Assembly (NCBI GenBank): GCA_964572275.1
Contig: CAZNED010000001.1
Coordinates: 87,188 to 151,187, forward strand
Source: an uncultured Candidatus Saccharibacteria bacterium
Lineage (GTDB): Bacteria > Patescibacteriota > Minisyncoccia > Minisyncoccales > UBA1441
Reading direction: 5' to 3'
Length of the DNA stretch: 64,000 nt
In this document: positions 2,020 through 61,629 of the stretch, piece after piece
Numbering within the stretch: position 1 is the first letter of the stretch
How the letters are laid out: each line of letters opens with the position of its first letter
Position numbers and translations under genes: made by a program
The notes under the pieces: model-generated
Database searches by the model: none
Seen by the model: only the letters and a program-made list of their open reading frames with translations
What the model was told of the DNA's origin: nothing

Positions 2020-2112
2020 CTACTTGTCCAGCCCAGCCAACCACCTTCCAAGCGTAGATCCGCAGATCATTGCTAGGAAGAGAAGCAATACCTCCAACAC
2101 TTTTGTCGTCAC
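2020..2112 (-). CDS. 30-codon hydrophobic micro-ORF (VTTKVLEVLLLFLAMICGSTLGRWLAGLDK)
   Basis: GTG start overlaps the upstream stop (GTGA). GGGAGGG lies 5 nt upstream. The sequence is GC-rich. It corresponds to the C-terminal part of the implausible 95-aa track ORF 2020..2307. Confidence 0.45.
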   Translation of the reverse strand: MTTKVLEVLLLFLAMICGSTLGRWLAGLDK

Positions 2113-2267
2113 ACCATCCCTCCCAAGTTGTCCCAAGAGAGATAAACGATGGGGGCGACGATGATGCAAATCGCCACTCCGATTATCTGAGCGACCGAAC
2201 CCAAAAACAGAAACAGCAGAGTCGGTCCCAGACCAATCGTTGCGAATCCTTTTCCGATGCGATGCAT
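2109..2267 (-). CDS. 52-aa small membrane protein (MHRIGKGFATIGLGPTLLFLFLGSVAQIIGVAICIIVAPIVYLSWDNLGGMV)
   Basis: Hand translation. GGAGGG lies directly upstream of the ATG (spacer about 3-4 nt). Two hydrophobic spans and GC3-rich codons. Below the ORF-track length cut-off. Confidence 0.55.
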   Translation of the reverse strand: MHRIGKGFATIGLGPTLLFLFLGSVAQIIGVAICIIVAPIVYLSWDNLGGMV

Positions 2268-2403: not shown

Positions 2404-2904
2404 ATGGTTCAAAAAGCTATTGATTTGGTACCGGAAGACTGGAGGTCTCGTTTTCCTGAGACCGTGTCAGAGTTGGGATTGCTGGGTGAACGTACCCTGC
2501 AAGTTCTTCTGGAGAGATGGTCGCAAGAGAGCGAAGAAGCAGCCATCATCCAGCGGATCATGGAGGGAAACACCTCTCCCACTCCACCCTTAATCTTTCT
2601 CCGGCCGAACGACTGGTTGGAGAAGGGGTGCAGCGTCCTATGGATCAAGGTGAATCCCAAAAACGGCTCCATGAGAATCCATGGACCGATCGACATCATA
2701 GAGTTGTACTACGGTAAGGAAGGAGAGGTGATAGCAGCCAGGATGAAAAGCGGAGAGACCGTCCTGGCTCATCGCGTATTCCACCTCTATGAAATAGAGG
2801 TACTGAAGAAACATCCCCTGCTTCTGAAAGTCTGGCTAAGGGGAGTCTCTCCCCAAGACAGGGATCGTGTAAAGGAGGCGATCGAAGGGTTCTGGCTCCC
2901 CTAA
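2404..2904 (+). CDS. Hypothetical soluble protein, 166 aa, GC-rich orphan
   Basis: ORF track. GAGGGGG lies 5 nt upstream of the ATG. It has its own promoter and terminator. I recognise no family. Confidence 0.6.
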   Translation: MVQKAIDLVPEDWRSRFPETVSELGLLGERTLQVLLERWSQESEEAAIIQRIMEGNTSPTPPLIFLRPNDWLEKGCSVLWIKVNPKNGSMRIHGPIDIIELYYGKEGEVIAARMKSGETVLAHRVFHLYEIEVLKKHPLLLKVWLRGVSPQDRDRVKEAIEGFWLP

Positions 2905-3018: not shown

Positions 3019-3108
3019 TCATGGATGATACCGCCGCCACATACCCGAGATCAGAGATACGAGAATCAGCGCTCCGATGGCTATTCCGAAAAACTCGGCC
3101 AAAGACAT
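3019..3108 (-). CDS. 29-aa hydrophobic peptide (MSLAEFFGIAIGALILVSLISGMWRRYHP)
   Basis: Hand translation. AAGGAGGG lies 4-5 nt upstream of the ATG. One TM-like span plus a basic tail, with a dedicated terminator. Below the ORF-track cut-off. Confidence 0.55.
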   Translation of the reverse strand: MSLAEFFGIAIGALILVSLISGMWRRYHP

Positions 3109-3342: not shown

Positions 3343-4608
3343 TTAAGACGGATTATTGACACGACCCATAAACAGGATTGCCCCCGTTTCTGAATGTTCA
3401 ATTAAGAAGAAGAATGGTCTATCGGCTCGGAAAACTGGTTTGTCTATCATCATAGCCGATTCTTTCATGATTACTGCCGTTGCGGCAGCTGCTTCGGTTC
3501 CTTCTTCATTTACTTCCACAAAAGCTTGATGAATAACTTCGCTGATAAAAAGATCTTTATTCCCTGTCATTCCTGAGAAATCAGCATCCATTGAGAAAGC
3601 AATTGGCATACCCATTTCCGCCAGATCTTCCTTCATGAAATATTTTGTTTCCAATTTAAAGCGAGGCAGAAATAAATCGATTTCTCGAGGTTGCAAAGAT
3701 TGACGATAAGTCTCTAATTTTTCCAATATCAAAGATTCTTCTAATTGCCCTATCTCATTTTGTTTAGGCAATAAGATCAACATAGCCAGTTCTTCTCCTT
3801 TATATGGAAGAGATAATATTTGCACATCATCTATTTCCGCATATCTTAACGGTTCTTCTCCGATACGTTGCATCATTGATACGGCTACCTTTTCACTCTC
3901 ATCTAAATAAAAATCGCTCTCTTGCGTTAAATCGGAATCGAACCCTTCCAACCAAGTACCTTTGAAATATATGGCATTAGTCAAAACTAGTCGCGTAATC
4001 GGATCAATAAATCCAGCCGGAATTAAATCCTTAATCTTTTCTTCTGTTTGATCTTCAACCCATTGATTAATCGTTAATCTGGAACCTTCGGGATCATCGC
4101 GGAAATTAAGCGATGTCGCCTTTCCTCGATAATATTTTTCAATAACAGAAAAATATTCTGTTAAGAAATTATAATCCTCCTGAGGCCACAATACATTGAC
4201 TGTCTTTAAGATATAATCAGATTTTGATTGATTGAAAATATTATAAAGGCCAGCGAAACCTTTTCCCCTTGTTTCTTCATCCGGCAGATGAAGTACCAGT
4301 TTCATTTCTTCAGCTGTTTGATTTTTCGCTCCTTCATAAGTCATGGCTAAAGCCGTAACAATGCTATAAGGCGAGAAAAATATATTGTCTTCTTGTTGAC
4401 GATATTGATTATAAAGGTCCAGGGCAAATTGATTACTACTGCGAACTATCTCTTGCGTGCTTTCAATATCTGTTTCTACATCAAGAATCGGACCATCTTC
4501 TGGTGTTATTGGAGCTTCGCCACGCCAATAACCAAACAGGAGAACGATCACAATCATAGTTAAGATCATTAAAACGATGTTTATGATTGTTTTTCCTTTT
4601 TGTTTCAT
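3343..4608 (-). CDS. Serpin family protease inhibitor, N-terminally membrane-anchored
   Basis: 421 aa. Serpin signatures FFSPYSIVTALAMTYEGA, NAIYFKGTW and hinge/RCL EEGTEAAAATAVIMKESAMM...FRADRPFFFLI. N-terminal TM span IINIVLMILTMIVIVLLFGYW. Confidence 0.9.
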   Translation of the reverse strand: MKQKGKTIINIVLMILTMIVIVLLFGYWRGEAPITPEDGPILDVETDIESTQEIVRSSNQFALDLYNQYRQQEDNIFFSPYSIVTALAMTYEGAKNQTAEEMKLVLHLPDEETRGKGFAGLYNIFNQSKSDYILKTVNVLWPQEDYNFLTEYFSVIEKYYRGKATSLNFRDDPEGSRLTINQWVEDQTEEKIKDLIPAGFIDPITRLVLTNAIYFKGTWLEGFDSDLTQESDFYLDESEKVAVSMMQRIGEEPLRYAEIDDVQILSLPYKGEELAMLILLPKQNEIGQLEESLILEKLETYRQSLQPREIDLFLPRFKLETKYFMKEDLAEMGMPIAFSMDADFSGMTGNKDLFISEVIHQAFVEVNEEGTEAAAATAVIMKESAMMIDKPVFRADRPFFFLIEHSETGAILFMGRVNNPS

Positions 4609-4675: not shown

Positions 4676-4703
4676 TTGACAAAACATAAATATGTGTTAT
4701 CCT
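4676..4703 (+). promoter_or_regulatory. Promoter of the GC-rich membrane-protein cassette
   Basis: TTGACA (4676-4681), a 16-nt spacer, then an extended -10 TGtTATCCT (4695-4703). Confidence 0.5.
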
Positions 4704-4724
4704 CATAATTGTAAGGAGGTGCAC

Positions 4725-5039
4725 ATGAAACTCGGTATCTTCTGGGCCGCCGTCGGTGGTACTAGCGTCGCGGCTCTCGTCTACCAAGCAGGAGCAGGTG
4801 TGTGGTTACTACTAGCCGCACTCATCTTCAATGTCGTCGTCGGTGTGATTGCGTGGCGACATGGGCGAGAGCGCCGTGCGATTATGATCATCGCGACGGT
4901 CGTCACAGTGGTTATTGCGGCGACACTCTTCGCGGCATTGTTCGCCACCAATCCGGCGAACGGAGTCATGACCATCCTAGTGATGGTCATCGCAGCGGAC
5001 GTCGCCATCGTGTGGAGATGGCGATGGACAAACATCTAA
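4725..5039 (+). CDS. 104-aa Ala/Val/Gly-rich small membrane protein (about 4 TM), GC-rich orphan
   Basis: AAGGAGG lies 5 nt upstream of the ATG at 4725; the track start at 4692 has no SD. Begins MKLGIFWAAVGGTSVAALVYQAGAGVWLLLAALIF... GC3-rich codons. Confidence 0.65.
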   Translation: MKLGIFWAAVGGTSVAALVYQAGAGVWLLLAALIFNVVVGVIAWRHGRERRAIMIIATVVTVVIAATLFAALFATNPANGVMTILVMVIAADVAIVWRWRWTNI

Positions 5040-5122: not shown

Positions 5123-7186
5123 ATGGATTTAGACTTAAACACAAAAACCTCTGATTTGCCAGGAATAGGCGCTGGATACAGCCGTAAGTTATTTGAAATA
5201 AATATTCAAACAGCTGAAGACTTATTACGATATTTCCCTTATCGTTATGACGATTTTTCAGATTTAAAAAAAATAAATCAAGTCAAAGTCGGAGAAAAAG
5301 TTTGTTTAAAAGGAGAAATCATCGAAATAAAAAACACTTTTACCTTTAGGAGAAGATTAATTATTACCGAAGCTTTTTTACGAGACCAAACCGGTCAAGT
5401 TAAAGTAGTTTGGTTTAACCAACCTTATCTATCTGAACAGCTCCAAGGTCAAACAGTTATTCTGGCGGGTAAAGCCACTGAAAAGAAAGGAGAAATTTAT
5501 TTAGCTAGTCCTATCGCGGAAAAAATAAAAGACTCTCCGACCCATGCCGGACGCATTGTTCCTATTTATCCGGAAACTAAAGGTCTAACTTCTCGGTGGT
5601 TGAGATATGTTATTAAACCACTATTAGAGCAGATGCAAGATATTGATGACCCCCTCCCCTCGTCTATCATCAAGCAACATCAACTAATGAATTTATCCGA
5701 AGCCCTGGCTCAAATTCATTTCCCCGATAATTTAAATCAAGCCGAAAAAGCTCGGAAAAGGTTTGCTTTCGAAGAGTTATTTTATATCCAATTAAGAACT
5801 CTCATCGCTAAAGCAGAGAATAAAAAGCAAGCCGCTATAAAAATACCAATCAATCTGCCATTAATCCAGAAATTCGTAAAATCATTACCGTTTGAATTAA
5901 CAGCTGGACAGAAAATAGCAATTTGGAGGATTTTAAAAGATATGGATCAAGAAGATCCTATGTCGCGTCTATTAGAAGGAGATGTCGGATCCGGCAAGAC
6001 AGCCGTTATGATGATACCTGCACTAAACACTATTTCATCAGGAGGACAAGTCGCCCTTATGGCCCCTACTGCTGTTTTAGCAAGACAACATTTTGATACA
6101 TTAAGACAGTTTTTCAAAGATTTCTCTATAAATATCGGCTTATTGACCAGCGATATACACTATTTAGGGCATCGTCAATGTTCTGCATCTAATATTATCG
6201 ATCAACTAAAATCAGGAAAAATAGATTTAATCATTGGCACCCATGCTTTAATTCAAGAAAGAATTAAATTTAAGAAATTAGCTTTTGTTGTTATCGATGA
6301 ACAACATCGTTTCGGCATTAGACAAAGAGCAAGATTGATGAAACCAGATCAGAAAGAAAAACCTCATTTACTGTCAATGACCGCCACCCCGATTCCTCGT
6401 ACTCTCGCTTTAACTGTTTATGGAGATTTAGATCTTTCTTTATTAAAAGAAAAGCCTCAAGAGAGAGGTGAAATCATTACTCAAATTATTAAACCCAATC
6501 AAAGGCGCGGAGCCTACAATCTTATTCGCCGAGAAATTAAGAAAGGGCACCAAGCTTTTATTATTTGTCCGCGCATAAAATCAGATTCAGAAGAAGATCA
6601 TATCAAAACTGTAAACAAAGAATATGAAAAATTATCAGAAGATATTTTTTCAGATTTGAAAGTGTCCCGTCTGCATGGGCAAATGAAGGCCACCGAAAAA
6701 GAGAGGGTTCTGAAAGGATTTCAGAAAAACAAAATAAATATATTAATTACTACCTCTGTTATCGAGGTAGGAATAGATATCCCTAACGCAACTATCATGA
6801 TTATCGAGGGCGCTGAAAGATTCGGCCTAGCCCAGCTTCATCAAATGAGAGGACGCATCGGTCGATCGAATCATGAATCTTATTGCCTACTATTTACTAG
6901 CTCTCCTGAGATAGAGAGCACTCGCCGACTATCGGCTTTAGTAAAATGCCACGATGGTTTTAAATTAGCTGAAAAAGATTTAGCCATCCGCGGACCTGGT
7001 TCTCTAACTGGACAAAATCAATGGGGAATCCCCGATTTAATAATGGCTAATTTGAAAGACTTAGATCTCGTAGAGAAAACCCGCCAAGCTGCGAAAGATT
7101 TACTTTCTGACGATCCAGAGCTAGAGAAACATATTCATCTAGCCGAAAAAGTTAAAAACATCGAAAGCATAGTCCATTTTGAATAA
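5123..7186 (+). CDS. recG: ATP-dependent DNA helicase RecG
   Basis: 687 aa. Wedge/OB N-terminal domain, Walker A GDVGSGKT, DEQHRFG, and helicase C-terminal motifs QLHQMRGRIGRS. Confidence 0.9.
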   Translation: MDLDLNTKTSDLPGIGAGYSRKLFEINIQTAEDLLRYFPYRYDDFSDLKKINQVKVGEKVCLKGEIIEIKNTFTFRRRLIITEAFLRDQTGQVKVVWFNQPYLSEQLQGQTVILAGKATEKKGEIYLASPIAEKIKDSPTHAGRIVPIYPETKGLTSRWLRYVIKPLLEQMQDIDDPLPSSIIKQHQLMNLSEALAQIHFPDNLNQAEKARKRFAFEELFYIQLRTLIAKAENKKQAAIKIPINLPLIQKFVKSLPFELTAGQKIAIWRILKDMDQEDPMSRLLEGDVGSGKTAVMMIPALNTISSGGQVALMAPTAVLARQHFDTLRQFFKDFSINIGLLTSDIHYLGHRQCSASNIIDQLKSGKIDLIIGTHALIQERIKFKKLAFVVIDEQHRFGIRQRARLMKPDQKEKPHLLSMTATPIPRTLALTVYGDLDLSLLKEKPQERGEIITQIIKPNQRRGAYNLIRREIKKGHQAFIICPRIKSDSEEDHIKTVNKEYEKLSEDIFSDLKVSRLHGQMKATEKERVLKGFQKNKINILITTSVIEVGIDIPNATIMIIEGAERFGLAQLHQMRGRIGRSNHESYCLLFTSSPEIESTRRLSALVKCHDGFKLAEKDLAIRGPGSLTGQNQWGIPDLIMANLKDLDLVEKTRQAAKDLLSDDPELEKHIHLAEKVKNIESIVHFE

Positions 7187-7248: not shown

Positions 7249-10200
7249 TCAAGGAGCTACTTCTTCGTAATCTGGCAACCCGAATATGCCTGTTGTTGGC
7301 ACTGCTTTTGTTAAGTCACAATAGAGGCCAGCACTATCCGTAACGATTAATTTAACCGATCGCTGAGAAGAAGTCCCCGTGAAAATAATTGATGGATTAC
7401 GGCTTGTTGAAGTCAATGGATCTTGAACGGCACCTCCTGCTATTTTAGCTTCAGGGAAAGTCCATAACCAACTATTCGTTCCACCACCATAAACTTTAGA
7501 ATTATCAGTAAATTGAGTTTCTTCTTCTAAGACTGGCGGCTCTGGTTCCCAAGAAAAGTCAGGTTCAGGATAAGGATTAGCTAACGTTGTATAGGTTCCA
7601 CTATAAATTGACCAAGCCGAAGCCATGCCTTGATCATCTTTAACTCTAATTCTCCACCAATATTGATAGCCATAATCAAGATAATCAATTGGAACAGCAT
7701 AAGCCTCGCTACTACTATTAATCCATCCATTAGTGACATTAATGTAATTGTTAAAACCACTGTTCGTTGCAAAATGAATCTCAAAACCACTCTGATTATT
7801 CCCTTCGTCGCTAACAAATTTCCAATAAAGAGTTGGGTTTAGAGGATAATCACAAGAACGGCAATCATTCGTACAATTGTCCGGATCCATATCAAGATTC
7901 TCAGCCCGAGGAGGTATTGTTTCGGCATCAGAAACTCTGAGATCCGCTACTTGCGCCTGTGCAGCCTCGGCCAAACCGCGTTCAACAATAACTTTTGGAG
8001 TATAACTTCCCGACACACCATAAGTACAAACGTTATCTGCAGTATAAGAATCAACATTCTGATCTGTCGCTCTATGAACCCAGGCTCCACATTGAGAAAT
8101 TGCTCCCTCAATGCTTGCGCCAGTATAACTGCAATCACACCAGAAAGTGAAGCTGGCCAGACCAGTAGCTGTACTATCGGGTGAAATTGAAGCTGTTAAG
8201 TCAACGGTTAATGGAGCAGTGCCGGAAGCGGGATCAGCCGACAAAGAAACAGATAATGTTTCTACTTCAGGAACTACACCGATAGCAGTAACTTGTGTGG
8301 CTTGAGGAAATCTTCCTTGCTCAAACCAAAGATTATCAATGGTAGCATAAATGAATGATTCCGGAATTTGCACTTGCACTTCTCCAATTCCGGGAGCTAT
8401 TGCCTCAATATAATAAGAACTTCCTTCACGATAAGCCCTAAGACTTTCAGTCGTTGATACCTGAATTTGGTCCATAGTCAATGGATTAGTTGCCGCCGCC
8501 CCGATTTGAGGGGTAAAGATATTATCGGCGATAACACCCAATGATCTGGCGTTCATCTGATAAGAGGTTAAATAATTACCATCAATTGGTTTTAATTGAT
8601 TGTAATCGTTTTGAGCATTAGCAACCCATGAAATTGGAGGAGTATCCCAGGCTCCACCGGTGAAATACCATTCCCCCGTTGGTTCTCCTAATTCAATTCT
8701 CAAGATATCCCCTAAATTGATGATATCTCCCCCCACAATCCTATCTCCTGTTTCAACATTAACTAAGTAAACCGGATAATTATTAGTAAAATTAATTTTA
8801 GCACTCAGTCCAATGTGTGATGCAAATACTCTTATGCCACTTCGGAATGTTGAGTCATAGATTGCATGGCAAGGATTATTTGGACCCTTTGAACGCCTAT
8901 TATTGCAAATAGCCGTCCGGCTATCCAATACTCCGATATTCTTCTGAGAAGCCGCACCTGTGCTGACTGTCACTGTTCCGCTTCTGACTGGACCGGCTTG
9001 GAATCTCGGAGTCGTTGATAGTCGCATAGTTTCGGCCCAACTGCCTAACTGCGAGAAGATACGATCAATATAGCTTTGTTGCGAACCAGCTTGCGTCATT
9101 AAAGGAATTAGCAATCCGATTCCCAGCACAAATGCCATACTTGCTACTTGCGATTTCTTACTCATGTTTCCACGACGCTTAAAAAGCAACCACATAATAA
9201 AAATCAATATAATTACTCCTAATAACCACAATCCTAACGTTGAACCAGTACGATGGATATATTCCACATCATACCAATTGCCTCCCGACAATATTCTAAT
9301 CTTATAGCTTTGGCCGGCAATAAAATTAACATCCCCTCTTAAATCACTGCCATAATAAGAAGGATTAAAATAAACCAATTGTTCGTCCTTATCTCGTACC
9401 TCAACAGTTAAGCGAGTATCCGTTAATCGCCCTGCCATATCGTAAGGATGAATGACCAATTGTCCGTCCTCGACGCGGACACTTAAATCTGCCATATCTG
9501 TAAAGAGATTGACATCATAGAAAAGATCTACTTGATCAATCAATTGATCATCCTGATAAAGTCGGCCCTTTAACCATACTTGATTATAATCGCGGCGGGT
9601 AGTAAATTCTGCCAATCCCGCCATGATGCCGGGAGTAATTTCTCCTTCATAATCCCATGTCTCGATTTCGTTTCCAATCTCATCTTCTAATATCACTTCT
9701 ATTCGTCCTTCATTCCCGTAAATATCATTAGTGCTATGGAAGCAAACGAAGAATGAATTGTCCTCATTCCCTTTGATCGGAAAACTATTCAAAGCTATAA
9801 AATTAAAGCGGGCCGGCGCATCCGATCCATCAACCACAAATCTTATCTTTAAAATAGATTGATCGGTGCGAGCCTCAAATAAATAGACTCCTGGTTTCAA
9901 ATCTGAGAGTTCGCGAGTCAATGGCAATAACTCTCCTGCTTTCAACGCTATTTCCTTCTCTTGGCTCAAAACTAACTGTTCTGGGCTGAGATTATCCCAT
10001 CGATATAGTTTTTCAGAAACGTTAATCGTTCGATCCTTGGCTGCCAAGCTTTTTAAATTGAAAGATAATTTAACTTGATCTTTTTCAATTACCGGAATGA
10101 ATCCTCGGGCTTGAAAAGATTGATCATCTACTTTGATATTCTCTTTGTCAAAGTATGCCTCATTAACTTCAAATTCTTCAAAAGTAAACTCACTTAATCC

Positions 10201-14135: not shown

Positions 14136-14164
14136 TTGTTGATTTTCGATAATTTATATATAAT
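14136..14164 (+). promoter_or_regulatory. Promoter of structured RNA R0
   Basis: TTGTTG (14136-14141), a 17-nt spacer, then TATAAT (14159-14164). Confidence 0.6.
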
Positions 14165-14170
14165 GAATAT

Positions 14171-14395
14171 TAGCAGTACCCGGAGGGAGCATTTCCCCTT
14201 CAAGTTTGTACGCTTCGGACGGGATGTCTTCTCGTTCGGCGTGTTCCCCCCTCCGGCAGGTATCCTGGAGAAAGGACGTGCGTTTCCTGACCGTAGAGAG
14301 GTCCGGTTTGGCACACACCCGTGCCTCGCACCTAAAGGGAGCGCACTCCTTCTCCATGATCATATGGTCCTCGCAAAGGGTAGCGAGGACTTTTG
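14171..14395 (+). ncRNA. GC-rich structured RNA of about 225 nt (R0), family unknown
   Basis: Helix CCGGAGGG (14180-14187) pairs with CCCTCCGG (14249-14256). A 15-bp helix pairs GGAGAAAGGACGTGCGT (14267-14283) with GCGCACTCCTTCTCC (14341-14355). Inner hairpin GGCAC/GTGCC (14310-14325). Terminator GTCCTCGC-AAAGGGTA-GCGAGGAC (14367-14390) followed by TTTT. No credible ORF. Confidence 0.6.
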
Positions 14396-14406
14396 CAATA
14401 TTTCTC

Positions 14407-14435: not shown

Positions 14436-14441
14436 ATGAGT

Positions 14442-14559
14442 GAGGAAGGGAGAGCGTGCTCAGTCGTTGGTTGCTAGGTGACGTGAAGTATCGTTGAGCA
14501 CGCTCTCTTCCTCCAGTGTATGGGACTCTCGCATGGTGTGTGCGAGAGTTTCTCTTTTT
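14442..14559 (+). ncRNA. Small RNA sRNA-1 (about 118 nt): long 5' hairpin plus terminator
   Basis: Stem of about 20 bp: GAGGAAGGGAGAGCGTGCTCA (14442-14462) with TGAGCACGCTCTCTTCCTC (14495-14513). The loop carries GGTGACGTG (14477-14485). Terminator ACTCTCGCA-TGGTGTG-TGCGAGAGT (14525-14549) plus a T-run. Confidence 0.7.
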
Positions 14560-14584
14560 ATAAACTATTCGGCCTTGAATGCCA

Positions 14585-14613
14585 TTGACTTTTGAGGTTA
14601 TTATGTCAGGATT
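14585..14613 (+). promoter_or_regulatory. Promoter of sRNA-2
   Basis: TTGACT (14585-14590), a 17-nt spacer, then AGGATT (14608-14613). The block TATGTCAGGATTAAT nearly matches the one at 2366-2380. Confidence 0.6.
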
Positions 14614-14619
14614 AATCAG

Positions 14620-14753
14620 AATGAGGCCGGGGAGGAGGAAGAGCATCACCTCCTATGTTCGGTGACGTCGCTGTTCCCGCTTGTGTACCTCCTCCCCCTG
14701 CCTCTTGCTCTGTGATCCCTTGCGCATGGTGTTTATGTGCAGGGGTTCTTTTT
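14620..14753 (+). ncRNA. Small RNA sRNA-2 (about 134 nt), paralog of sRNA-1
   Basis: Stem GGGGAGGAGG (14629-14638) with CCTCCTCCCC (14688-14697) plus 3 outer bp. The loop carries GGTGACGT (14661-14668) and ATCACCTCCT (14645-14654). Terminator CCCTTGCGCA/TGTGCAGGGG (14717-14745) plus a T-run. The tail TTTTTATAAAC is identical to that of sRNA-1. Confidence 0.7.
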
Positions 14754-14767
14754 ATAAACACAAAAAA

Positions 14768-14807: not shown

Positions 14808-15077
14808 TTAATAGCGACGATCGTCGCGGGGTTTGGGAGGCTTTGCTTCGCTGACAGCGATAGTGCGGCTACCCAATTGGTGACCATCCAGTTCAGCGAT
14901 TGCCTTTGCGGCATCTTCCTCATTCTTGTAGGTCACGAATCCGAAACCTTTGGAACGACCTGCGTGATCAGTAATGATGATTGCTTCTTCTACTTCACCT
15001 AATCCAGCGAAGAGAGATTTCAATTCATCTTCTGTCGTGTTCCAATCAAGGCTTCCGATAAAAAGCTTTTTTGGCAT
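14808..15077 (-). CDS. RRM-type RNA-binding protein (89 aa)
   Basis: RNP2 KLFIGSL and RNP1 KGFGFVTY. Single RRM domain. Confidence 0.9.
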   Translation of the reverse strand: MPKKLFIGSLDWNTTEDELKSLFAGLGEVEEAIIITDHAGRSKGFGFVTYKNEEDAAKAIAELDGHQLGSRTIAVSEAKPPKPRDDRRY

Positions 15078-16185: not shown

Positions 16186-16434
16186 TTATTCAGGCTTTTT
16201 GATCTCTGTTTTCGAAACAAGACTTTCTTCTTTTTTCTTGCTGAAAACAAAGATGTAAAGAATCTCTAATATACCAAGCGTATTTAATAAAAGCAAAACG
16301 ACAAACCATATTTTTTGACTGCGACGAGCTGCTCGCCAAAGTGCCCATCCTGTCCAAGCAATAATCCAGAGAAGTATCAATGAGAGTAATTCCGGATTAA
16401 TTGAGAATAATTGTTCAATACTGACTGGATCCAT
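16186..16434 (-). CDS. Small two-TM membrane protein
   Basis: 82 aa from the ORF track. Two hydrophobic spans. Confidence 0.55.
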   Translation of the reverse strand: MDPVSIEQLFSINPELLSLILLWIIAWTGWALWRAARRSQKIWFVVLLLLNTLGILEILYIFVFSKKKEESLVSKTEIKKPE

Positions 16435-16481
16435 AATAATATTTTTAATAATAAATTACATTATTATAATCTGGCTATTGA

Positions 16482-16509
16482 TTGATGGCAAATCAGATTA
16501 TGCTAAAAT
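16482..16509 (+). promoter_or_regulatory. Promoter of GC-rich element D
   Basis: TTGATG (16482-16487), a 16-nt spacer, then an extended -10 TGcTAAAAT (16501-16509). Confidence 0.55.
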
Positions 16510-16515
16510 TAGACA

Positions 16516-16730
16516 GAGCGAAGAGCATTCCTTGGTCTAGTAAGCACAAGAATTCTCTTCGAAATGAACAAAACGCGCCGAAAAAGGAGGAAAACAATGA
16601 AAAGGCGCCGAGGTATGAGTCTCGGGACTGGTGACGTGCCGTCGACCCGCTCCGAAGTCGAGGTGTCCTAGAACCGCGATCCGGTTCACAGGCACCATGG
16701 GGGTGCTTCCGTGAAGCGCCCCCTTTGCTT
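16516..16730 (+). ncRNA. GC-rich structured small transcript (element D), possibly dual-function
   Basis: Stems CGAAGAG/CTCTTCG, GAACCG/CGGTTC and GTGCC/GGCAC. Terminal hairpin GGGGGTGCTT-CCGTG-AAGCGCCCCC (16699-16723) followed by TTTGCTTTG. Shares ATGAGT (16615-16620) and GGTGACGTG (16630-16638) with sRNA-1. It is antisense to the flanking minus-strand genes. Confidence 0.5.
16597..16671 (+). CDS. Candidate 24-codon ORF (MKRRRGMSLGTGDVPSTRSEVEVS) inside element D
   Basis: AGGAGG (16585-16590) lies 6 nt upstream of the ATG. A coding role is unproven. Confidence 0.3.
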   Translation: MKRRRGMSLGTGDVPSTRSEVEVS

Positions 16731-16738
16731 TGCAAATA

Positions 16739-16954
16739 TTAAATTTTGATTTCTTCTTTAAAATAGGTTCGATAAAGCGGCCTAACCATCAGAATCACCA
16801 CTAGCACTATCAGCCACCAAATATTTATTGTTGTCAAAACCGGAAATATAATCACTAACAATACACCGAAAGCTATGCAGCTCCATTTGATTAGAGCCAT
16901 ATCCCACACATCCAACTTTTTAGTTTTAGATCTCATACATGATAATATTTTCAT
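16739..16954 (-). CDS. Small two-TM membrane protein
   Basis: 71 aa from the ORF track. Two hydrophobic spans. Confidence 0.55.
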   Translation of the reverse strand: MKILSCMRSKTKKLDVWDMALIKWSCIAFGVLLVIIFPVLTTINIWWLIVLVVILMVRPLYRTYFKEEIKI

Positions 16955-17185: not shown

Positions 17186-17248
17186 TTATTTTTTAGCCTT
17201 TTTTGGTTTTTTGGTTTCCTTTTTTCTGGAATTATTACCCTTAGCCAT
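17186..17248 (-). CDS. Candidate leaderless 20-aa Lys-rich peptide (MAKGNNSRKKETKKPKKAKK)
   Basis: Hand translation. An extended -10 TGaTAAAAT ends 6 nt before the ATG. A downstream hairpin CTCGATA/TATCGAG plus T-run lies near 17085-17110 on the minus strand. Confidence 0.35.
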   Translation of the reverse strand: MAKGNNSRKKETKKPKKAKK

Positions 17249-17369
17249 AATTCTATTTTATCATAAAAAAATTATAAATATATTTAGCTGTATTTAAATT
17301 GGTAATATTCAGATTAATTGACAAAATATCTTTTTGTTATAACATATATAAATTAGGAGGTGGTGGTGT

Positions 17370-17651
17370 ATGGCGAATTCTCATCCGGGAACTCTAGGAC
17401 CGTGGACTTGGGATCAGAGAGCGAAAGAAGCTCTCCTCCCTGTGCTCGGTCCAGCCGCAACGGAAAGAGCCATGAAGGAGGTGAAGGGGTGTCAATCGGC
17501 TCATTTCTACGTTCCTAAGGGACGTGCCTTCGAGGCGGCGCAAGCACTTAGCGCAACACAACCAGATCCAGGATATTGTGCCGCATACAGTGTTCGCGCT
17601 ATCAGCACAACCAGAATCGTCTTGAGCGCCGTCCCTAATACGGCCTCATAA
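17370..17651 (+). CDS. Hypothetical 93-aa GC-rich orphan protein
   Basis: AGGAGG (17355-17360) lies 9 nt upstream of the ATG. Upstream are TTGACA (17318-17323) and TGtTATAAC (17335-17343). It has its own terminator. I recognise no family. Confidence 0.55.
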   Translation: MANSHPGTLGPWTWDQRAKEALLPVLGPAATERAMKEVKGCQSAHFYVPKGRAFEAAQALSATQPDPGYCAAYSVRAISTTRIVLSAVPNTAS

Positions 17652-17670
17652 CATTCGAGATTTCCAGGGG

Positions 17671-17706
17671 AGGTCCGGTAGTGTTTACCGGGCCTTTTCC
17701 TCTTTT
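17671..17706. terminator. Terminator of the 93-aa ORF (convergent with the ASCH-like gene)
   Basis: AGGTCCGG-TAGTGTTTA-CCGGGCCT followed by TTTTCCTCTTTT. Confidence 0.65.
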
Positions 17707-29255: not shown

Positions 29256-29395
29256 ATTTTCTGTATAATCATCGAGACAATGTCTGTCTCCATCACTTCC
29301 GTCTTTTTACTATAGACAAAGACGTATCTTTTCGGATCTTCACTTGTATCTCCCGGAGCTCTATATAAATTATAATTTGATCATAACACAAAAAC

Positions 29396-29414
29396 CCGAG
29401 AAGGTTGTTCTCGG
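29396..29414 (-). terminator. Intrinsic terminator of the hydrolase gene
   Basis: CCGAGAA-GGTTG-TTCTCGG, followed by a T-run on the minus strand. Confidence 0.65.
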
Positions 29415-29521
29415 ACAACAATGGCCCCGAGCTGTGCTAGAACTTAGAATTATCATTTTAAGCGGTTGAAAGTTCTTACGGGCTGGACGCAGCCGTGGAT
29501 ATGCTGGATGACAAGATGCCG

Positions 29522-34483: not shown

Positions 34484-34546
34484 AAGAGGGATTTTAGGAG
34501 GGTTATCATGTGAAGGAGGACTTGTTAAGGAGGATTATGCAGGAGG
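34484..34546 (+). promoter_or_regulatory. Array of five SD-like purine motifs in the leader of the 34576/35228 operon
   Basis: AAGAGGG (34484-34490), AGGAGGG (34496-34502), AAGGAGGA (34513-34520), AAGGAGGA (34527-34534), AGGAGG (34541-34546). An extended -10 TGgCATAAT (34468-34476) lies just upstream. Confidence 0.55.
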
Positions 34547-61544: not shown

Positions 61545-61617
61545 GGGCCAGTAGCTCAGCGGTCAGAGCAATCGGCTTATATCCGATTGGTCGGGGGTTC
61601 GATTCCCTCCTGGCCCA
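61545..61617 (+). tRNA. tRNA-Ile, anticodon UAU as read
   Basis: Acceptor GGGCCAG/CTGGCCC. Anticodon stem ATCGG/CCGAT with loop CTTATAT (anticodon at 61578-61580). Confidence 0.85.
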
Positions 61618-61629
61618 CTTAAAAGAAAA

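Follow-up and report, generated by a model that had tools for sequence, protein, structure and literature searches.

Element D, a candidate small RNA gene between two small membrane-protein genes of a Patescibacteria genome

Element D is a GC-rich (guanine plus cytosine) unit on the plus strand of a 64,000-nucleotide (nt) stretch of DNA (GenBank assembly GCA_964572275.1, contig CAZNED010000001.1, forward-strand positions 87,188 to 151,187), hereafter the window, where it fills a 304-nt gap between two minus-strand genes for small membrane proteins. The sequence supports D as a separate plus-strand transcription unit: it carries a predicted promoter and intrinsic terminator of its own, and its position and orientation are kept in a related genome, as expected of an independent small RNA (sRNA) gene. 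We read it, with slightly less than even confidence, as a candidate for a lineage-restricted, fast-evolving sRNA gene, probably acting in cis as an antisense or insulating transcript. The 24-codon open reading frame (ORF) that it contains is, by comparison between species, not its conserved feature. To our knowledge, hardly anything is known of the regulatory RNAs of Patescibacteria (Candidate Phyla Radiation). In genomes as tiny as theirs, a GC-rich spacer of 300 nt probably does not lie idle, and D, if transcribed, would be an unannotated sRNA gene.

Transcription signals and a counterpart in a second species

The window is AT-rich (38.2% GC), and both its gene content and its nearest relatives point to Patescibacteria. 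The intergenic region of D is an outlier in length and in composition, with 45% GC over its 304 nt compared with 20-30% in most gaps, and the predicted D transcript itself reaches 54.5% GC. Transcription would start from a sigma-70-type promoter (16482..16509, +) composed of the -35 element TTGATG (16482-16487), a 16-nt spacer and the extended -10 element TGcTAAAAT (16501-16509). A first-pass annotation of this DNA, made by a model from the letters and a list of open reading frames, had proposed exactly this promoter at these positions; the sequence and a promoter scan both confirm it, with the TG element present and a score of 9/12, and the predicted start of transcription lies at about 16515-16517. 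At the far end, an intrinsic terminator (16699..16733, +) is predicted from a hairpin at 16699-16723 with the loop CGT and the tail TTTGCTTTGC. The terminal hairpin had been noticed before; its stem has 11 base pairs (bp; 8 G-C and 1 U-G), not the 10 first counted. Transcription between these signals would give an RNA of about 215 nt (~16516 to ~16730), GC-rich and with multiple hairpins.

D lies in ordinary chromosomal DNA. Divergent from it runs an operon that opens with the gene for a DUF5652 membrane protein (16434..16186, -; Pfam E 5e-24) and also encodes a HAD hydrolase, and the predicted promoter of this operon is near-consensus (TTGCCA-17-TATAAT, 16463..16491, -; 11/12). Its -35 element (16491..16486) and that of D overlap by 2 nt, an arrangement absent from the first-pass annotation. 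From the other side, a gene for a 71-amino-acid (aa) two-helix membrane protein (16954..16739, -) converges on D, and the end of D's terminator is 6 nt from the stop codon of this gene.

Seven contigs from other samples hold the same strain, and D is identical in them wherever the region is present. The nearest different species, reached through a search with DUF5652, belongs to Patescibacteria from Mono Lake (contigs L009-L014, of which L010 is GCA_964477715.1). Its DUF5652 protein is 75% identical to that of the window, and the 71-aa protein has a 67-aa homolog on L009 that is 52% identical. The two genomes share a gene order that runs from the 67-aa gene through the gap to DUF5652, HAD, an 85-aa gene, an RRM protein gene, the gap holding the sRNA-type units described below, DUF5684 and PGA_cap. 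The Mono Lake gap is 285 nt long and holds a unit on the same relative strand as D, whose promoter, TTGAGA-16-TGtTAGAAT, aligns with D's. The 2-nt overlap of back-to-back -35 boxes is present there too: on L009, the DUF5652 promoter consists of TTGCTC (5947-5952), a 16-nt spacer and TATAAT (5969-5974), and the -35 element of the unit lies at 5956..5951. The GC-rich stretch of the Mono Lake unit is about 195 nt long, has 50.5% GC in a locus of 36.8%, folds with z = -3.35 and ends in a predicted terminator of 12 bp. In both species, the GC content of the unit exceeds that of the genome by about 14-16 points, and the predicted terminator is strong.

Segment-by-segment alignment of D with the Mono Lake unit gave z = 5.1 for the promoter region, z = 4.2 for the terminator and z = 0.5 for the body of about 140 nt, and neither blastn nor tblastx found anything when the bodies were compared. 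The two predicted transcripts start with about 12 bases in common: the 5'-terminal GAGCGAAGAGC of D (16516..16528, +) appears in the relative as GAG-AAGAGC, with the 7-mer GAAGAGC equally distant from the -10 element. GAAGAGC at the 5' end and an exposed or pairable AAGGAGG further in, in the same order in both species, are the sole shared elements of the transcripts. The Mono Lake contigs differ from one another by three micro-variants, located in the terminator loop, in a G-run and in an A-run, which are evidence neither way. A pattern in which the transcription signals and the 5' end are conserved, GC-rich folding is maintained and the body drifts freely fits an orphan sRNA that needs to be produced and to be stable, and we infer that selection may act on transcription and stable folding as such, with no one fold or peptide as its target.

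The D-like unit is known from these two species only. We found no third example at six homologs of the 71-aa gene (including those on L017-L022) or at one more DUF5652 homolog, and the gaps at these genes in distant relatives are short (40-145 nt) and AT-rich. When public genome and metagenome contigs were scanned with the HAD protein, all matches came from the same strain or from relatives with 43-45% identity and no synteny.

Folding, strand and reading frame

The predicted D transcript folds more stably than its shuffles (z = -3.6). In the 5' hairpin P1 (16519..16561, +), CGAAGAG (16519-16525) pairs with CTCTTCG (16555-16561), and inner pairs extend the stem. In helix P2 (16575..16608, +), GCGCC (16575-16579) pairs with GGCGC (16604-16608) to close a 24-nt A-rich loop, which displays AGGAGG (16585-16590) and an ATG at 16597. 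Both had been described before, as a leader stem and as a possible helix around the Shine-Dalgarno (SD) site and start codon, and both are present in the sequence. The GC-rich hairpins P3 (16609-16624), P4 (16625-16653, which holds GGTGACGTG) and P5 (16662-16696) follow in the minimum-free-energy and centroid structures alike; this part of the fold (16609..16696, +) cannot be aligned with the unit of the Mono Lake relative. On the minus strand, the P2 region reads as a U-rich run after a hairpin.

The plus strand is favoured as the transcribed one because the terminator hairpin of each species contains one U-G pair, in place of which the opposite strand would have an A-C mismatch. It is favoured also because the extended -10 element of D lies outside the DUF5652 promoter and is nevertheless conserved, and because the convergent 67-aa gene on L009 has a canonical terminator of its own (5777-5789 followed by T8) inside the 3' part of the unit. 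With the 67-aa gene ending there, about 130 GC-rich nt toward the DUF5652 promoter would be transcribed only from the promoter of the D-like unit. The terminator positions on L009 also predict that the two convergent transcripts overlap by about 60 nt.

The 24-codon ORF, MKRRRGMSLGTGDVPSTRSEVEVS followed by TAG (16597..16671, +; codons 16597-16668, stop 16669-16671), begins 6 nt after AGGAGG, just as the first-pass annotation had it; an in-frame ATG at 16564, which went unmentioned there, has no SD and would yield 35 aa. Structure prediction leaves both the SD and ATG 16597 unpaired, and the GC content of the frame by codon position (0.56/0.56/0.72) is uninformative. Among the 42 AGGAGG sites in the window, nine have an ATG 4-10 nt downstream (128 kb, both strands), with about 4.4 expected by chance, and the probability of such an ATG after any given AGGAGG is about 10%. 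For at least four of the nine, the ATG is a plausible start of a small GC-rich gene (4725, 17370, 3108- and 2267-). The AGGAGG-ATG arrangement of D is suggestive of translation, not decisive.

The comparison of D with L009 reveals no conserved ORF on either strand. The L009 unit has no ORF equivalent to the 24-codon frame, and the peptides are not similar; neither of its AGGAGG sites has a start codon at usable spacing, and its only long frames run through the terminator and past the U-tract. A protein gene on the minus strand was rejected, as the ~80-aa frames of the two species share no similarity. The 35-aa version of the ORF had no match among 1.84 billion representative proteins, and no reading frame of D matched Pfam, PHROG or PADLOC. 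A concatenated six-frame translation of D found no match among 5.8 billion proteins, a weak negative given that a 49-aa frame called on L001 was also unrecovered in that search. In the dual-function sRNA and micro-protein gene first suggested for D, then, the sRNA unit is kept in the relative and the ORF is the part that lacks a counterpart or a protein homolog. The outcome named beforehand as counting against the suggestion was a set of homologs in which both ORF and helices are broken; for the micro-protein and the specific fold, the Mono Lake unit largely has this effect, and it leaves the reading of D as a transcribed small RNA standing.

Proposed action and alternative readings

RNA polymerase would start at about 16516 from the extended -10 promoter and stop at the hairpin at 16699-16723. 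The most likely action of the resulting RNA would be in cis, by pairing with the 3' end or the read-through of the 71-aa gene mRNA, because D converges on this gene and, in the Mono Lake relative, the terminator of the homologous gene lies inside the 3' part of the unit; the mRNA of the convergent gene would be the one guaranteed partner of D. In the window, the two RNAs overlap only if the 71-aa mRNA reads past 16738. A scan between 16738 and 16435, from the 71-aa gene across D, found no canonical minus-strand terminator, so read-through from the 71-aa gene would be antisense to most of D. A cis-antisense regulator of such transcripts had been the second of the two roles first suggested, and it is plausible in light of the predicted overlap in the relative and the lack of a canonical terminator separating the 71-aa gene from D in the window. 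Converging polymerases, together with the hairpins of D, may also shield the DUF5652-HAD operon from read-through, and competition between its promoter and that of D could arise from the overlap of their -35 boxes; the conserved back-to-back promoter is a simple and testable regulatory arrangement. The 24-codon ORF would most likely be a by-product of the A/G-rich loop, which is the complement of the minus-strand U-rich run. In the Mono Lake unit, a run of eight A residues is likewise the complement of the U-tail of the convergent gene's terminator, and these complementarities together offer a non-coding rationale for a purine-rich loop at the SD.

Several observations weigh against a cis-acting sRNA gene. 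Promoter-like sites are common in the AT-rich window (17 found by the promoter scan, 11.5 expected), and the strand opposite D folds about equally well (z = -3.4), so that energy does not discriminate between strands. The internal helices differ between the two species: the RNAalifold consensus is in essence the fold of the Mono Lake unit, and the window sequence disrupts it. No compensatory helix changes supporting a conserved fold of D were found, though with only two species this is a weak test. An RNAduplex scan of D against 60 gene start regions of the window did no better than shuffled D. The unalignable body would also fit a non-functional by-product transcript or independent sequence replacement, and the AGGAGG-6-ATG arrangement of D matches the plausible starts of GC-rich small genes in the window. 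In one alternative, D is a small mRNA whose AGGAGG-6-ATG in the open loop would drive translation of a species-specific, basic and hydrophilic 24-aa peptide, possibly with a dual function, and one of a class of GC-rich mini-genes with a perfect SD. The rarity of AGGAGG-ATG pairs at this spacing in the window, at least four of them at plausible starts, the unpaired SD and ATG, and the presence in the Mono Lake relative of other GC-rich mini-units with AGGAGG and a 22-codon ORF (L009 4265-4500) are all in keeping with it. We nevertheless think a peptide unlikely, as the syntenic Mono Lake unit has no usable start near AGGAGG and its long frames cross the terminator, the peptide resembles nothing in either the representative-protein or the six-frame search, codon-position GC says nothing for coding, and roughly one AGGAGG in ten would be followed by an ATG by chance. 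An alternative to which we likewise give only a minor share of the probability dispenses with a dedicated product altogether: the region would be regulatory scaffolding between operons, holding the DUF5652 promoter and hairpins that stop the 71-aa gene transcript, while the plus-strand promoter would be incidental or serve only to compete with that of DUF5652, and the RNA would be functionless. Alignment restricted to the promoter region and terminator, -35 elements that overlap in both species, a minus strand that folds as well as the plus strand, and the complementarity of the A-rich SD loop to the minus-strand U-rich run and of the L009 A8 to the terminator tail are in its favour. Such scaffolding does not readily account for the stretch from the convergent gene's terminator to the DUF5652 promoter, where both genomes, AT-rich as they are, retain about 140 nt of raised GC that on L009 only the promoter of the unit would transcribe; distant relatives manage with gaps of 40-145 nt and no such element, and the U-G pairs favour the plus strand.

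The GC-rich body might also be a remnant of horizontally acquired DNA, a decaying mini-gene or a fragment of a mobile element behind a resident promoter. The window does hold small genes of foreign composition (GC at third codon positions, GC3, of 0.61-0.66 compared with 0.31-0.42 in their neighbours), the body of D is unrelated in sequence to that of the Mono Lake unit, and GC-rich mini-units occur at different places in the two genomes. We consider a remnant improbable, given that D has no similarity to phage or plasmid records, to PHROGs or to proteins in six frames, that no repeats or terminal inverted repeats surround it, and that both species keep a similar unit length, the same 5' end and a terminator in the same place. 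Least probable of all, and in our view very doubtful, is that D is a diverged member of the sRNA-1/sRNA-2 family (14436-14757) and acts as those two units do. This membership had been advanced in the first-pass annotation from the ATGAGT and GGTGACGTG that D was said to share with sRNA-1. The 9-mer GGTGACGTG is indeed exact in D and sRNA-1 and has one mismatch in sRNA-2, a different 9-mer, GAAGAGCAT, is common to D and sRNA-2, and all three units are GC-rich, on the plus strand and equipped with a promoter and terminator of their own. Sharing of this kind is at chance level, however: shuffles share a 9-mer with sRNA-1 in 7% and with sRNA-2 in 8% of cases, and, with one mismatch allowed, GGTGACGTG matches the window four times compared with 2.7 expected. 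MAFFT found no common register of D with sRNA-1 and sRNA-2, and these two share the terminator loop GCATGGTGT and the tail TCTTTTTATAAAC, both of which D lacks. Their architecture is one long hairpin followed by the terminator, unlike the five or six separate hairpins and different terminator predicted for D, and neither the Mono Lake unit that corresponds to D nor the one that corresponds to sRNA-1 contains GGTGACGTG. The recurrence of a GDV tripeptide in corresponding frames, also pointed out at first, is a trivial consequence of the shared 9-mer. Membership of D in this family is not supported by its sequence.

GC-rich mini-units number at least eight in the window and several in the Mono Lake relative, at partly different positions, and those with a perfect SD in the two genomes hint at a possible class. 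It is conceivable, at long range, that D exemplifies a class of fast-turnover GC-rich mini-genes, each with a promoter, a perfect AGGAGG, a very short ORF or structured RNA and a strong terminator, which certain Patescibacteria would keep against their AT mutational bias and reshuffle between close genomes. If such a class exists, it could be a source of quickly evolving micro-proteins or RNAs that serve the episymbiotic lifestyle.

Known families and other small units

D belongs to no known family; it is not a new kind of system, and it is best described as an ordinary orphan sRNA candidate. Searches of the window and of L009 with Rfam 15, by gathering score and by E-value, gave no family at gathering score, and the best Rfam overlap at D was ASdes (RF01781) on the minus strand, with 18 bits against a gathering score of 40 and E = 1.8. 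A tRNA/tmRNA scan found none at D, blastn of D against phage and plasmid records gave noise only, no reverse transcriptase genes lie in its neighbourhood, and neither D nor its surroundings hold tandem, dispersed or terminal inverted repeats. We rejected a TIGR or CRISPR-like array, in view of the lack of tandem or interspersed repeats and of Cas-like neighbours, and a CsrA sponge, as GGA motifs are not enriched in D and genes for CsrA and Hfq are absent from the window. A riboswitch or cis-regulatory leader was rejected too: past the terminator, the strand of D runs antisense to the 71-aa gene, and the first ORF further along it, at 17370, is served by a promoter of its own.

The closest systems in layout are the type I toxin-antitoxin pairs RatA/txpA and SR4/bsrG of Bacillus subtilis, in which a convergent cis antisense sRNA overlaps the 3' end of a small membrane-protein mRNA. 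D is similar in being structured, in having its own predicted promoter and terminator, and in converging on a small membrane-protein gene with a predicted 3' overlap. It differs in that the overlap in the window requires read-through of the 71-aa mRNA, in that D is longer than those antitoxins and its antisense segment has no sequence conservation, and in that no evidence supports toxicity of the 71-aa protein. In addition, the gene of a type I pair should travel with its antitoxin RNA, whereas homologs of the 71-aa gene in distant relatives (L017-L022) occur without a D-like unit. A second comparison is with dual-function sRNAs that encode a peptide, such as SgrS/SgrT, RNAIII/hld and SR1/SR1P, in which the ORF or the pairing region is conserved among homologs. 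D resembles these in its short ORF with a good SD and in its small, hairpin-rich transcript with a terminator at the end, but its ORF is missing from the sole homologous unit and no pairing target stands out. Long GC-rich intergenic regions of AT-rich genomes are the starting point of the GC-IGR (intergenic region) pipeline, which treats them as candidates for structured non-coding RNAs (PMC11109978). The intergenic region of D is likewise an outlier in length and GC that is predicted to fold. The pipeline names a motif only when sequence and structure are similar across genomes (PMC11109978); D, with one positional homolog whose body cannot be aligned, would stay an unnamed candidate.

Three more GC-rich plus-strand units with a promoter and terminator of their own, namely A (14136-14400), sRNA-1 (14436-14560) and sRNA-2 (14605-14757), adjoin the gene for an RRM RNA-binding protein (14808-15077, -). 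On L009, the corresponding gap (8362-9025, -) also holds promoter/terminator units, and only the 3' hairpin of sRNA-1 can be aligned between the two (blastn E 2e-6).

Beyond the 71-aa gene, unit E (17346-17700, +) has the promoter TTGACA-16-TAACAT, AGGAGG 8 nt before an ATG at 17370, a GC-rich ORF of 93 codons and, at 17667-17699, a terminator. Pfam, PHROG and PADLOC give no match for unit E, which is not syntenic in the Mono Lake relative. Its GC content by codon position (0.60/0.57/0.48) is unusual for coding sequence, and the unit could be an RNA. Nearby, a tiny and very basic ORF, MAKGNNSRKKETKKPKKAKK (17248..17186, -), has the syntenic version MAKGNNSRKKETKKPKKAPKK on L009 (4941-5004, +), with no Pfam match. 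L009 has GC-rich mini-units of its own at 4265-4500 and 4700-4870 (+), each with a promoter and at least the first with a terminator, that have no counterpart in the window; the unit at 4265-4500 carries AGGAGG and the 22-codon ORF MKKQLGVVTIVGYIDENGRVRK, which was called as a gene by the Joint Genome Institute (JGI).

Small genes of foreign composition lie at 4725-5039 (+), 2404-2904 (+), 2267..2112 (-) and 3108..3022 (-), none with a significant family match. They encode hydrophobic peptides of 104, 52 and 29 aa, each with a perfect AGGAGG, and a soluble protein of 166 aa; the GC3 values of 0.61-0.66 given above were measured for the 104-aa and 166-aa genes. Four AGGAGG sites fall within about 50 nt (34496-34546, +) at the start of a gene that begins near 34510, and a 266-nt intergenic region at 29256-29521 has 41% GC compared with the usual 20-30%. 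ARAGORN predicts a tRNA-Ile with the anticodon UAU at 61545-61618 (+); this tRNA is uncommon in bacteria, where AUA is usually read by a lysidine-modified CAU tRNA. Finally, a full-length serpin gene (3343-4608, -; 421 aa, Pfam Serpin E 2e-121) is present in this Patescibacteria genome.

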